Assembly: GCA_964016885.1 (NCBI GenBank)
Contig: OZ024746.1
Coordinates: 94,798,001 to 94,862,000, forward strand
From: Eledone cirrhosa
Lineage: Eukaryota
Direction: 5' to 3'
Length of the DNA: 64,000 bases
Under the pieces are notes generated by a model, which ran no database searches, was not told the DNA's origin, and saw nothing but the letters and a program-made list of their open reading frames with translations. A program made the translations under genes and the position numbers. The number at the start of each line of letters is the position of its first letter. Within the stretch, counting starts at the first letter, position 1. This document shows positions 24,393 through 63,519 of this stretch, piece after piece.

Positions 24393-24838
24393 CTTGGAAC
24401 TCTTTTAACCATCTTTTGATCTTATATTATTTATACTCCAGTCCTACAAACTGTAGAGTGCTACTTATCCGATATTTGCATTGCTTTATTGTGCTACAAT
24501 AAAACTCACCTCCTACATTATATAGTTAGATAGATAGATATATACACATACGTGTGTCTGTGTGAGCGTCTGCATATCTGCATTTATATTTGCCCTCATT
24601 TATGTGGGTCCGTGATTATACACACACATAGACACGTATATATATATATAGAGAGAGAGAGAGAGAATTAATACATCTACCAACATATGCGTACAGATGT
24701 ACACTAATACTAGTAAATATATAAGTTATGTCAAAGTACCTAGGTGGTTCAATGCAGGGGGATGCAGAACAATTATATGAAAGACGTAAAATAAGAAAAT
24801 TTAAAAAATTAAAAATTAACTTACTTACTAAAATTTTC

Positions 24839-24920
24839 ACTCCAACTAATTAGTTTCTGTAATGGGATAAATATAGTTACACAATGTAACTATCGAGAAT
24901 TCATTACGTCATCAGGGAGT
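24839..24920 (-). ncRNA. type I hammerhead ribozyme
   Basis: actcc-CTGATGA-gtaatg..cattac-GAAA-ctaattag (palindromic)-TT-ggagt; GUU triplet. Confidence 0.85.
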
Positions 24921-25448
24921 CTATTCTCAGCTAAGTTCCCAGGCAATGCGCGGACACTAGGAACCCATATAAAAATAATAATTCAGAGGATGTAATAAGC
25001 TAGCGGGGATTAAATTCCATAGCACTGAAAAAGTTCACTGCCTCTGGTCAGTGGTGGATTCTAAAGAATCAATCACGTGACACTGAGGTTAGTCAGTTAG
25101 GAGTGGGGTGGTATTATGACAAGAGCCTACTACTACTACTATGAATTAGCAGTAGATTTGGCAAGTTTGCTCAACAAATAATTTGGAGATAAATATAGAG
25201 AATTAATACATCTACCAACATATGCGTACAGATGTACACTAATACTAGTAAATATATAAGTTATGTCAAAGTACCTAGGTGGTTCAATGCAGGGGGATGC
25301 AGAACAATTATATGAAAGACGTAAAATAAGAAAATTTAAAACATTTTTAAAATTAAAAATTAACTTACTAAAATTTTCACTCCTGAATTATTATTTTTAT
25401 ATGGGTTCCTAGTGTCCGCGCATTGCCTGGGAACTTAGCTGAGAATAG

Positions 25449-25530
25449 ACTCCCTGATGACGTAATGAATTCTCGATAGTTACATTGTGTAACTATATTT
25501 ATCCCATTACAGAAACTAATTAGTTGGAGT
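25449..25530 (+). ncRNA. type I hammerhead ribozyme (inverted-arm copy)
   Basis: same motif as 24839-24920 on the opposite strand. Confidence 0.85.
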
Positions 25531-25586
25531 GAAAATTTTAGTAAGTAAGTTAATTATTAATTTTTAAAATTTTCTTATTTTACGTC

Positions 25587-25633
<47 letters not shown>

Positions 25634-25642
25634 TACATAAAG

Positions 25643-25708
<66 letters not shown>

Positions 25709-25710
<2 letters not shown>

Positions 25711-25898
25711 CGAAGGAAATGTGGTAAGGAACCAGGTGGACCATAACGCACCAAAGTACTCAATACTTAGGGTAGTAGAGTGGGTAATAGGAACGAGTAG
25801 GACCCCGACGGCTGAGCACAAGTCGTTTCGACGGCTAATTCTAGTCCAGAATTAGCCGTCGAAACGGCTTGAGCTCAGCCGTCGGGGTCCTACTCGAT

Positions 25899-25900
<2 letters not shown>
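25709..25900 (-). mobile_element. fold-back (TA)n element with the 3' half of a hammerhead
   Basis: ~110-bp palindrome plus tail; family also at 26491, 58294, 62135, 63378. Confidence 0.8.
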
Positions 25901-25954
<54 letters not shown>

Positions 25955-26416: not shown

Positions 26417-26490
26417 CACAAACTCGCATATATATATATATGCGAGTTTGTGTATATACACACATATATGTATATATATATATATATATA

Positions 26491-26668
26491 GGAAAAAGTA
26501 TGACCCCGACGGCAGAGCTCAAGCCGTTTCGACGGCTATTTCTGGACTCAGAAATAGCCGTCGAAACGGCTTGAGCTCTGCCGTCGGCGTCATACTTTTT
26601 CCTATTTCCCACTCTACTACCCTAAGTATTGAGTACTCTGGTGCGTTATGGTCCATCTGGTTCCTTAC
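26491..26668 (+). mobile_element. fold-back (TA)n element with the 3' half of a hammerhead
   Basis: palindrome centred on GACT at 26545-26548; GAAA-cggc..gccg-TC. Confidence 0.8.
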
Positions 26669-33668: not shown

Positions 33669-35460
33669 ATACTTGGGGAGGGTCATATTTGTGTAATATT
33701 GCCAGAATTAATAACAGAACACGCTCACTGTTTGGTTAGTTTTCGCTTTTCGCTTCTGTGTCTTTTATATCGGTAATCTAATTTGTTCGGTCCTCAAGAG
33801 AGCACTAACAAGTTGGATTTAGAATGTAGCACAATGGAAAGCATCCAGCAGATAGCTAATTCCATACACCAGAGTATAACTGTAATTATCGACTACCCTT
33901 CCAAACACCCTAACAATAGACTACCTGTATTAGACACGGAACTCTGGATTAACACTATAGACGAGAGAGCCCAAATTCTCCACTCACACTATGCTAAACC
34001 CATGGCCTCCAAATACCTGATACTCAAAAACTCAGCAATGTCCAGTAGTGCTAAGTTTAATATTCTGATCGCAGACTTGGTACGAGTGATGAAGAACGTG
34101 TCCCGCATGTGCGACCCAACAGAAATGGAAAGACACATCCAACACTTCATCAACCGCATGCAGTTCACTGGCTACAACCAAAGAGACAGAGTCAGAGTAT
34201 ACGAAGGAGCCACGGAGAAGTATAAGACCCTCATAGAACTGGACATGAAAGGCATTTGCCCATTATACAGGAGCAAATCATGGAATAGATTAGATAGGGC
34301 TAGACATAAGTAGGGAAAGCCACCTCATGGTACGACAACCAGAGATACCAGAGTGTCATGTTTGTGGACGCTACCCCTGAACGGAAATTAGCTAACCAGT
34401 GTAGAAAGGCCCTGAGAAAGACCCACTTGAAGATTAAGGTGGTAGAAAAGCCAGGAACCACCATAAAATCCCTGATCAGCAAAACCTACCCTTTTAAGAA
34501 AACCCACTGTACTAATAGGAAATGTATCATATGTAAGGTAAACCCCCGGATAAACTGTAAAACTAGAAACATAGTCTATGGCATAAGATGTACAGAGGGT
34601 ACTTGCAGAAACATGACAACAACATACATAGGCGAGACAGCTCGTAGCATAGGTGAAAGGATAGACCAACACTGGGGGAACTAAAAGGACGAAAAAACGG
34701 TTCAGTACTATACGCACATGCCAGACAACAACACGACGGTAACATAAACAACATAGAAATTAGAATAATATCTAAACATAGAAATGACCCAGCAGATAGG
34801 CAAATCAGAGAGGCTAGTGAAATAGAACTTAGAAGGCCAAGGCTAAACTGAAAGAATGAATGGAATAACAACACCCAAACAAACAACACTGACCTAAGAG
34901 AAGTATAAATAAATAAATAGATAAATAAATAAATACATACACAAGCACAATAACAACAAACACATATAAACACACACTAGTAAAGATAGAATACATTAAC
35001 CAATACACAGTCACCCAATCACGAACACACATCAAATAAAACACTATACACAAACGCATGCGCAAAGAAGACAAAATAAAATAAACAAATAAATAAATAT
35101 ATAAACAGACTAAATAAAGATGGCGTAGAATGCAACGGGAGGAAACAATAGCGCCACTGACGATGTTGCAGATGTGCAACGAAAGAACTTTGATAAACTA
35201 TATATATGTGTTTGTGTCTATATTGTATCTGTATTATTTTTTACCGTTGGTCAGTCAATGGCAACATTGAGGACCGAATAAATTAGATTACCGATATAAA
35301 AGACACATAAGCGAAATGCGAAAACCAACCAAACAGTGAGTGTGTTCTGTTATTAATTCTGGCAATATTACACAAATATGACCCTCCCCAAGTATAACAA
35401 TATTTGTTTCGACACACGATTTCATATCAAAAACCTCGCAACACTAATTCATCGCCGTTA
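33661..35460 (+). mobile_element. 5'-truncated Penelope-like element (second family) with inverted 5' arm
   Basis: LPVLDTELW..YAKPMAS..SAM (RT thumb region); C..C..C..IVYGIRC..YIGETARSIGERIDQH (GIY-YIG), with stops; 33661-33797 is the inverse of 35267-35403; (TA)n on both sides; partial HHR CTGACGA-gttgca/tgcaac-GAAA at 35157-35184. Confidence 0.85.
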
Positions 35461-45457: not shown

Positions 45458-45493
45458 TCTTCTGATGAAAGATTAATGTCCGAAACGTTAAGA
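45458..45493 (+). ncRNA. minimal type I hammerhead
   Basis: tctt-CTGATGA-imperfect stem II-GAAA-cg-TT-aaga. Confidence 0.65.
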
Positions 45494-45759: not shown

Positions 45760-45802
45760 ACGTTGCTGACGATAGCTAATAAGCTTGAAACTAGTACAGC
45801 GT
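45760..45802 (+). ncRNA. minimal type I hammerhead
   Basis: acgttg-CTGACGA-agct aata agct-GAAA-ctag (palindrome)-TA-cagcgt; GUA triplet. Confidence 0.85.
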
Positions 45803-49665: not shown

Positions 49666-49735
49666 TTATTTAAGTCTGATGAATCCTAATATTGAGCTTT
49701 TAATATTACGGATGAAACAAGCGTAAATTAAAATA
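49666..49735 (+). ncRNA. type I hammerhead upstream of (TA)n
   Basis: CTGATGA at 49676; stem II atcctaatatt/aatatta(c)ggat; GAAA-c aagc g-TA; stem I AT-rich with one mismatch. Confidence 0.65.
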
Positions 49736-58295: not shown

Positions 58296-58476
58296 CAAAG
58301 GAATTGTGGTAAGGAACCAGATGGACCATAACGCACCAGAGTACTCAATACTTAGGGTAGTTGAGTGGGAAATAGGAAAAAGTATGACCCAGCAGAGCTC
58401 AAGCCGTTTCGACGGCTATTTCCAGAAATAGCCGTCGAAACGGCTTGAGCTCTGCCGTCGGGGTCATACTTTTTCC
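58294..58476 (-). mobile_element. fold-back half-hammerhead (TA)n element
   Basis: same family as 26491-26668. Confidence 0.8.
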
Positions 58477-59344
58477 TATATATATATATATGTTATAGGC
58501 ATGACTACATACATACATACATTCACACACACTCACACAACATACATACATTCACACACACAACATACATACATATATTCACACACTCACATACATACAT
58601 ATATTTTTTTTTTCTGATGAGGGTCCATTTAAATTCGTATTTTCTGGCATTTTTACATGCCTACTTAATAGATATGCCTATATATTTATACAAGTTAGTG
58701 CAGTATTTGTTAAACACTGTGTATTTATGCAAGTACTTCGACCCCGTACAGCCGAGCTACCTCCGTATGATCGGAGCGTCGACGGTCCATCTGAAGAGGT
58801 AGCCATGCGAGGTTGGATGGCTGCTACAGCGGGTGTCTCTGGCCATCGTCCGTAGGAATGCTTTTGCCGTCTTGTCAGCGGGGTGCAGCACTTCTGCCCT
58901 CTTACCCTAGGCCCAAAGCCCAATCACCCTCTCCCTTCGGCCCCCTCTCTTCTGCGACACCAGAGCTCTTGCCATCCCCACCCCTTACCGATCTTTTTCT
59001 TCTTTATTTCTCTCCTCTTTTTTTATGTATACTTTTTAGTATATTTCCCTATTCATTCTTTCCTTTTCTTTCCCCTTCTTTTTTATTATTTCTACATTGA
59101 AAATAAACATGTATTTGGTTAAAAGAAATGATATCATACACTTTAACTGATGGTGCACTTCTTACCATATATAAATTAGGATTGGTGCTCTGAAATAGCG
59201 ATGCATACATCGCTAATTCAGAGCACCAATCCTAATTTTTATTTTTGCTGGACCAGCAATCGCTCTGTATCAGTTTCTGATTATTACTGGAATTCTATAA
59301 GAATCCAGCTTCTATAATTTTCGGCAGTGGTCGACGAGTACGTT

Positions 59345-59385
59345 GCTCTGAGGAACACCAACAGTGTGAAACAGAATCTGTCAGC
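59345..59385 (+). ncRNA. type I hammerhead ribozyme
   Basis: gct-CTGAGGA-acac caaca gtgt-GAAA-cag aat ctg-TC-agc; GUC triplet; lies in TA-flanked element 59173-59511. Confidence 0.82.
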
Positions 59386-60928: not shown

Positions 60929-61419
60929 CATCAATAAAACATCTTTTAAAGAGCTCAAGATTCCTTTTCCTTTGAGCACATAATTTACAGGGAATAACGA
61001 GTCTATGGCTCCGTTAATTTATCTTGATATTTCGCTCCTTATAACAGTCTTTCCCCTCTCTCTATTTGGTTGAGCACATCTCTTTGAGTGGTTTTGGGCT
61101 GCCATTTCTAGCAGCTCGTCCCTCAGATACCACTGGTTCACTGTCCTATGCACGCTGTCACATCTCTCTACCACGTGTTGCAGGACGGTTATCTTATATT
61201 TTCTTAGCCTTACACACGCTGATGAACCATAGGCGCTTCCATTTCAGTCAATCATTTCTTGGTGAAACAGATCCCTTAGGATTTGTACGTGTGTTATATA
61301 GTTATAGAGGTGCGTATATACATTTTAATTTATATTTTTAATTATTGTGTGTCTACCCTGCCTTCCATAGGTTATAGATTCCATACACTGGTGGTTTTCC
61401 CTGTTTTATTGATGTCACA

Positions 61420-61509: not shown

Positions 61510-62069
61510 TATATATACATATATATATATTTATACTTATACTTTAGGAAGGTCATACTGCCAATTAAAACACACATGCACCTGTTGGTTTTCACTTCAG
61601 TTAATTATAAATTTCTGGTTGGTTGGTTCGATAACCGAATGGTTGTTATATATTGTCAAAGCTCTTTCGTCACACATTTTGTGACCTCCTCAGTGACTAG
61701 GGTTTTACTTTGTGTCTCTCCTTTGTTTTGTCCTACACCATCTGGTATATATATATATAAATAAAACAAAGTAAGATTTCACGTTAAGTTCTTTATTGAT
61801 TAAACACAGTTACCGCCCTTTCATAGATGGGTAGCTCAGGATTTATATAAGTGTTATTGATCCGACCCCAGTCTAATCTGTTTATCAGACTTGTTAATCA
61901 AGCAAAGCCAAAATCCCATCTGTGGAACAGTCGTAACTGTGTATAATCAACAAATACCTTAATGTATCACCTCGCTTTGTCTTTATTATATACACTCTGC
62001 TCTAGCATAGAGTCCTGATTTTGGTATTTTAGTACCTACCTCAGTAAACTGCGAATCTACTGAACCACT

Positions 62070-62134
<65 letters not shown>

Positions 62135-62136
<2 letters not shown>

Positions 62137-62329
62137 AAAAAGTATGACCCCGACAGCAGAGCGCAAGCCGTTTCGACGTTTCAGTCCAGAAATAGCCGTC
62201 GAAACGGCTTGAGCTCTGCCGTCGGGGTCATACTTTTTTCTATTTTTTCCTATTTCCCACTCTACTACCCTAAGTATTGAGTACTCTGGTGCGTTATGGT
62301 CCATCTGGTTCCTTACCACAAGTCCTTCG

Positions 62330-63377: not shown

Positions 63378-63519
63378 TTTAGTCCAGAAATAACCGTCGA
63401 AACGGCTTGAGCTCAGCCGTCGGGGTCATACTTTTTCCTATTTCCCACTCTACTACCCTAAGTATTGAGTACTATGGTGCGTTATGGTCCATCTTGTTCC
63501 TTACCACAATTCCTTTGTT
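63378..63519 (+). mobile_element. half-hammerhead element without an inverted arm
   Basis: begins at the hairpin loop; same family as 26491. Confidence 0.75.

Follow-up and report, generated by a model that had tools for sequence, protein, structure and literature searches.

Introduction

The systems described so far that come closest to the repeat analyzed here are the non-LTR retrozymes of animals. The available text of the principal study gives them units of 170-400 nt and a propagation model in which the template is assumed to be circular (Cervera and de la Pena 2020, PMC7229834). According to the accessible part of a later preprint, retrozyme units measure 51-972 nt and the non-LTR retrozymes derive from the ends of Penelope-like elements (Li, Clavereau and Pollet 2026, bioRxiv 10.64898/2026.07.22.740005). 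Insertions of Penelope-like elements show a signature consisting of a partial tandem, an inverted 5'-truncated copy and a one-sided tail, and the role of their hammerheads was called unclear, both according to the available sections of one article (Craig et al. 2021, PMC8557442). The one-sided tail was explained by two reverse-transcription starts on a Penelope-like element in a study whose available text also reports that cleavage was dispensable for insertion in vitro and that RNA reads neither started nor ended at the cut (Frangieh et al. 2024, PMC11167929). In the retrotransposon R2, the ribozyme cut fixes the template's 5' end and can be read at genomic 5' junctions, as stated in the available text (Eickbush et al. 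2013, PMC3774820).

Here we describe a locus from a window of 64,000 nt, which is the whole stretch of DNA analyzed (Eledone cirrhosa, contig OZ024746.1, positions 94,798,001 to 94,862,000), and the repeat family with 540-nt units to which it belongs. Like the animal non-LTR retrozymes, as far as the sources portray them, the family consists of ORF-less, AT-rich tandem units in high copy number, each with a type I hammerhead whose short palindromic stem III is suited to dimers, and Penelope-like elements are present in the same genome. The unit of about 540 nt exceeds the 170-400 nt of the 2020 retrozymes, yet lies inside the 51-972 nt of the 2026 preprint. Unlike the retrozymes in these sources, the family has a long branched stem II, and it is described here from its genomic copies. 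With the insertions of endonuclease-bearing Penelope-like elements it shares 5' truncation, a partial tandem, an inverted copy, a one-sided tail and two internal starts (PMC8557442, PMC11167929, PMC4209133), and also a microsatellite target and a hammerhead near the 3' end (PMC8557442, PMC11167929; Cervera and de la Pena 2014, PMC4209133). It differs from these elements, as presented in the available parts of the articles, by the lack of an RT or GIY-YIG frame and by a tail of about 110-120 nt instead of 30-40 nt.

Results

Organization of the locus

The main arm of the locus (24662..25383 of the window, minus strand, 722 nt) comprises one full 540-nt unit (24844..25383, minus strand), which extends from GGAGTG to the next predicted cut and whose longest stop-free frame has 96 codons, plus 182 nt of the next unit. 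A type I hammerhead motif with a palindromic stem III and a GUU triplet (24839..24920, minus strand) predicts a cut between 24844 and 24843. The preliminary description had placed the cut before GGAGTG, and the core and stems could be read at this position. It had also stated that the upstream direct copy begins at GGAGTG, 540 nt upstream of the cut site, and the sequence agrees, the 5' boundary of the main arm being located at 25383 (minus strand), the first base 3' of the predicted cut. The 1-nt ambiguity of this junction was confirmed as well, as the G at 25383 is common to the main and the inverted arm. For the part past the cut site, ~180 nt up to (TC)(TA)n had been given and 182 nt were measured. 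At ~24662, which corresponds to unit position ~187, the main arm reaches the long type of 3' end, and (TC)n(TA)n follows. The microsatellite adjoining this end, (TA)n(AG)n (24637..24661, no strand), is likely the insertion target; no target duplication was readable there.

The inverted 5'-truncated arm (25383..25595, plus strand, 213 nt) contains unit positions 398-540 plus 1-75, stops at the short 3' end, where a (TA)n microsatellite is located (25591..25709, no strand), and is 99% complementary to 24774-24986. It carries the second hammerhead copy that had been announced for it (25449..25530, plus strand; predicted cut between 25525 and 25526). The two tandem copies at this locus show indel differences within the first 55 nt. 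There is one hammerhead per strand, two consecutive complete units with hammerheads do not occur at the locus, and a read-through transcript is predicted by folding to form a long hairpin in which the inverted-arm hammerhead is buried. The locus was therefore ruled out as a source of monomer RNA and is regarded as a product. Since an exact boundary match is expected by chance in about 1 in 500 arm ends and thousands of arms exist in the genome, the match at this single locus is weak evidence, and the weight lies on family-wide counts.

Properties of the hammerhead motif

On the minus strand, the motif is composed of stem I (ACTCC/GGAGT), CTGATGA, a long stem II, GAAA, the palindromic AACTAATTAGTT and the triplet GTT, which agrees with the core (CUGANGA, GAAA, NUH) and the three stems (I-III) expected of a type I hammerhead. 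Five base pairs form stem I and six form stem II, which contains an inner hairpin; the third stem is palindromic. All 6 pairs of stem II were found in 24 of 24 aligned copies, including two compensatory pairs (U-A/C-G in 11 copies, U-A/G-C in 6), which represent few independent events because the 24 copies are related. With respect to the expected G10.1-C11.1 pair followed by G12, the alignment revealed a G-C pair closing stem II with an unpaired C before and an unpaired A after it. In the literature searched, we found no published account of the effect of a GUU triplet or of an extra A on the hammerhead. Among 146 Rfam matches in the window at E ≤ 1 there was no hammerhead, for which the long stem II may be the reason. 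In folding predictions, the hammerhead fold of the monomer (-16.0 kcal/mol) was 2.9 kcal/mol above the minimum (-18.9 kcal/mol), and in an RNA with two hammerheads the two stem III palindromes paired with each other. The latter fold fits the dimer-type hammerheads described for Penelope-like elements in the available text of PMC4209133.

The repeat family in the genome

A 26-nt junction sequence had 5,590 exact matches in the 3.0-Gb genome and its reversed control had none; thousands of junctions in the family are seamless. For the analysis of arms, 60 distinct loci unselected by length were taken from most of the first 100 of the 5,590 matches. A separate initial set of 30 loci, biased to full-length units, was left out of the analysis of 5' ends. 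The 3' ends of 97 of the 106 arms with at least 45 nt in the 60 loci were located at one of two sites (unit positions ~75 and 185-195). Exactly two opposed arms were present at 32 loci, and in every one of these a short 3' end was combined with a long one; 25 of the 60 loci had one canonical arm. The copies are flanked by (TA)n or (TC)n, in line with a (TA)n microsatellite target, and show the Penelope-like combination of partial tandem, inverted 5'-truncated copy and one-sided tail. In three insertions (L018, L106, L275) the arms differed from each other by 13-15 of 90 nt, which suggests two distinct RNA templates or nested insertions.

The 46 full monomers had a size of 517-594 nt and represent non-coding, AT-rich tandem units with one type I hammerhead each. 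The size of the unit is set by the tandem units, with or without cleavage, and the earlier view that the boundary at 25383 defines a 540-nt monomer was not upheld. Two consecutive units with complete hammerheads are present in the family, as 26 of 97 arms reached a second site, with up to 4 consecutive units. A protein-coding unit was rejected, since no RT or GIY-YIG reading frame and no frame of more than 96 codons was found in it. The genome contains many frames with RT and GIY-YIG domains (150 of 10,595 GIY-YIG candidates scored), and no autonomous partner ending in this unit was found among the 46 GIY-YIG loci examined; two GIY-YIG loci with unit matches look like separate neighbouring insertions. 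One 938-codon open frame (L171:2992-5805, minus strand) has RT and GIY-YIG matches, the RT match being just under the Pfam cut-off, and is a candidate for a near-intact Penelope-like element. Judged from its sequence, the family is very probably an ORF-less non-LTR retrozyme of the Penelope type that would be mobilised by Penelope-like enzymes. As such it is ordinary, being a new family of an already known kind.

Distribution of 5' ends relative to the predicted cut

The 5' ends of 97 unselected arms were scattered over the whole unit, with 6-17 ends per 60-nt bin, and a single arm had its end no more than 2 nt away from the cut site. As the other 96 arms end elsewhere, the site was rejected as a dominant 5' boundary.

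In a genome-wide analysis, matches were filtered by requiring the first 21 nt after the cut and forbidding two conserved upstream bases, which yielded 163 matches without upstream ribozyme among 4,745 anchors. From the first 100 of the 163 rows, 16 with mutated or deleted ribozymes and 3 duplicates were dropped. The 81 ends kept were grouped by the number of upstream bases matched, which was zero in 19 cases, one in 25, two in 12 and three to nine in 25; a script run on the fetched loci reproduced this split. Ends at 0, -1 or -2 accounted for 56 of 81 (69%), compared to ~29% expected under uniform truncation when our own weighting for chance matches is used (p 1e-13). The largest class retains one extra T (25 vs 19 exact stops). 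This T at -1 could be an added base, a microhomology with the target or the trace of a stall before stem III.

In three similarly designed control windows, classes 0-2 contained 23/46 (63 rows, 17 dropped), 13/45 (50 rows, 5 dropped) and 18-24 of 77 ends (100 of 111 rows, 23 dropped), pooled at most 60/168. The difference between the cut site and the pooled controls was significant (Fisher p 8e-7), and compared to control C1 alone it was marginal, with p values of 0.04 when ends at 0 to -2 are counted and 0.07 when those at 0/-1 are. The stop rate at 0/-1 was estimated to be 1.3% per base vs 0.34-0.72% in the controls, or 2-4 times as high, values that are approximate because filter pass rates were assumed and denominators were scaled from the 60 loci. 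In a hand tally, 17 ends were located at the site vs 7 at positions +2 to +6, and the AT-rich positions +7 to +12 had 61 ends vs 17 at the site (85 kept of 100 rows, 384 in all; uncorrected for filter bias). Altogether, ~2-3% of passes are estimated to stop at the cut site and ~97% to read through. The preliminary description had expected the 5' ends to peak at GGAGTG, with randomly distributed ends as the contrary outcome. Each is partly true, as the ends are mostly scattered (1/97 at the site) and a local peak nevertheless emerges after filtering in excess of the controls, small as it is. Its view that a self-cleaved RNA was the template accords with the family-wide excess and is not supported for the large majority of passes.

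Of the arms ending at the site, 31 of 56 had already crossed a hammerhead, as had the main arm at 25383. The corresponding figure was 17 of 51 (p 0.03) for control ends in the vicinity, which were made up of 25 upstream rows and 26 of the 77 rows from the control. For classes 0 and 1 alone, this effect of pass number had a p value of 0.004, which rose to 0.15 in a worst-case recount with all doubtful controls counted against it. Judged by motif match, 9 of 53 loci of this kind apparently have a partner arm that likewise starts at the site or adjacent to it. Five loci (L105, L106, L109, L133, L135) show internal jumps of 200-350 nt, after which the arm stops at the cut site. In a further group (L108, L111, L137, C2:320816637, C5:20942603), short repeat copies of roughly the first 10 bases at the 5' end and 4-8-nt deletions were observed, the deletions ending at the cut site and being present in both units or both arms of the locus.

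Other hammerhead families

Family D is a hammerhead repeat with an 8-bp stem I, a GUC site, units of 406-440 nt and 1,381 anchors (loci L074, L151, L180, L185, L217-L246). The filter returned 133 matches for the 1,381 anchors, and after 31 of the first 100 rows had been dropped, 28 of 69 ends were located exactly at the cut and 11 at -1 (first 30 loci checked by script). When microhomology cases were removed, 18 of 53 ends were exactly at the cut (p 2e-5); in an unfiltered sample, 10 of 100 rows were at 0/-1. The cut site of this family overlaps a CTGCAG palindrome. Family D has the strongest cut-site peak observed and is the best candidate for a genome-only assay. Family B, which has a minimal GUA hammerhead and includes the motif at 45766 in the window, showed no peak at its cut site (19 of the 64 rows left after 36 of 100 had been dropped), indicating that the filter method does not itself create a peak. 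The share of ends at the cut was about 4-10% in family D and 2-3% in the 540-nt-unit family, and none were seen in family B.

Copies of family E are present in the window at 25724-25903 and 26488-26668, and also at 58309-58479, 62132-62316 and 63385-63504. This family forms head-to-head pairs of long-tail and short-tail arms in (TA)n and has a predicted U3-A8-type hammerhead with a GUC site. Of 63 unselected arms met by chance in flanks, 56 start within a 23-nt zone and 7 read through. The zone lies 1-23 nt upstream of the anchor, in the loop of stem II, and the predicted cut follows 45-60 nt further downstream of these ends. The pile-up, which is far stronger than the peak of the 540-nt-unit family, shows that 5' ends can accumulate without being cut by a hammerhead. 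A master RNA of short length, stalling at a hairpin or a different cut might account for the boundary. At L064:3562-4100, the frame located before a family E end contains a YIG motif; it looks GIY-YIG-like by eye and has no Pfam match. Besides the hammerheads of the locus, seven hammerhead-core-like motifs were noticed in the window (plus strand: 35157-35185, 45462-45486, 45766-45791, 49676-49718, 59348-59372, 61219-61268; minus strand: 61664-61693), several of which recur at other loci.

Discussion

On the whole, we favor the view, which we hold with moderate confidence, that an abundant non-coding retrozyme was inserted into a TA microsatellite by Penelope-like enzymes and that the boundary at 25383 stems from the 5' end of a ribozyme-cut RNA. 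A tandem source locus would be transcribed into a multi-unit RNA, whose palindromic hammerheads would cut occasionally, probably as dimers, so that some RNAs would be cut at the 5' end and remain intact at an internal site. A Penelope-type protein would then nick (TA)n and prime two cDNAs at two internal sites. The majority of cDNAs would end prematurely or continue across the hammerhead, with a few percent running off the cut end, and head-to-head joining of the two cDNA ends would follow. For the arm ending at 25383, reverse transcription would have run off an RNA 5' end cut by the upstream ribozyme. The excess over background suggests that 45-85% of the ends at the site result from a site-specific process, for which cleavage is the probable cause. 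Occasional cleavage of the RNA in the cell is therefore likely, on the indirect evidence of genomic ends at the predicted cut site.

The same element and insertion route could also have produced the boundary at 25383 by background truncation or at a local hot spot, e.g., by a polymerase stalling at the folded hammerhead or by favorable end joining. We consider this rather unlikely, although several observations are in its favor: 96 of 97 unselected arms end away from the site, the control windows reach roughly 30-55% of its per-base rate, the class at -1 outnumbers the others, ends are frequent at AT-rich and palindromic positions, and the pile-up of family E is located at a hairpin away from the cut. 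A stall at a folded structure fits poorly with the foot of the more stable stem II, where the ends show no excess (11 of 77 rows by hand tally, approximately the expected share), and end joining through TA microhomology is not available to a retained end that begins with GGAG. Moreover, family D peaks at 0 rather than at -1 (28 vs 11), and the excess in the 540-nt-unit family leans to later passes, which a purely local effect does not predict.

Quite improbable, in our opinion, is the stronger reading of the preliminary description, a template consisting of the self-excised 540-nt monomer, either circular or bridged by end-to-end jumps, with the arm representing a full round and a stop at the reopened junction. 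Circular and linear monomers have been shown for other animal retrozymes, according to the available text of PMC7229834, and the tandem units within an arm are near-identical (20 of 47 without substitution in 90 nt), as a circle would give. A closed circle, on the other hand, lacks a 5' end, and on a reopened monomer the arm would stop after 75 or 195 nt and not after an extra full round; 31 of the 56 site-ended arms had crossed the junction already. Sloppy jumps are difficult to reconcile with thousands of seamless junctions, and the indels within the first 55 nt distinguish the two tandem copies at the 25383 locus itself. The differences between tandem copies and partner arms fail to separate a circle from a linear multimer (p 0.8).

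The preferred origin of the boundary, a linear RNA cut by its ribozyme, has a parallel in R2, in which genomic 5' junctions likewise report a ribozyme cut, with microhomology and added bases, as described in the available text (PMC3774820). Unlike in R2, where the cut defines full-length copies, ~97% read-through is estimated for the 540-nt-unit family, and its ribozyme is a hammerhead instead of HDV-like and the element is non-coding (PMC3774820). In the available text of the articles on Penelope-like elements, the hammerhead is regarded as unclear in its role or dispensable, whereas a few percent of the ends in the 540-nt-unit family lie at the predicted cut. An earlier census of genomic 5' ends relative to hammerhead cut sites was not found in the literature searched, which largely lacked subscription papers and excluded supplements.

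What is new here is a small but countable excess of ends at the predicted cut. Although the effect is small, a measurable excess at this position would mean that the germ line contains cut RNA which gets copied, and it would offer a genome-only assay for the comparison of families. We see an about even chance that the copies represent a countable germ-line fossil record of cleavage, in which partly cut linear multimers, and not circles only, would serve as templates, with a share that depends on the family. If this reading is true, the in vivo activity of ribozymes could be ranked from an assembly alone.
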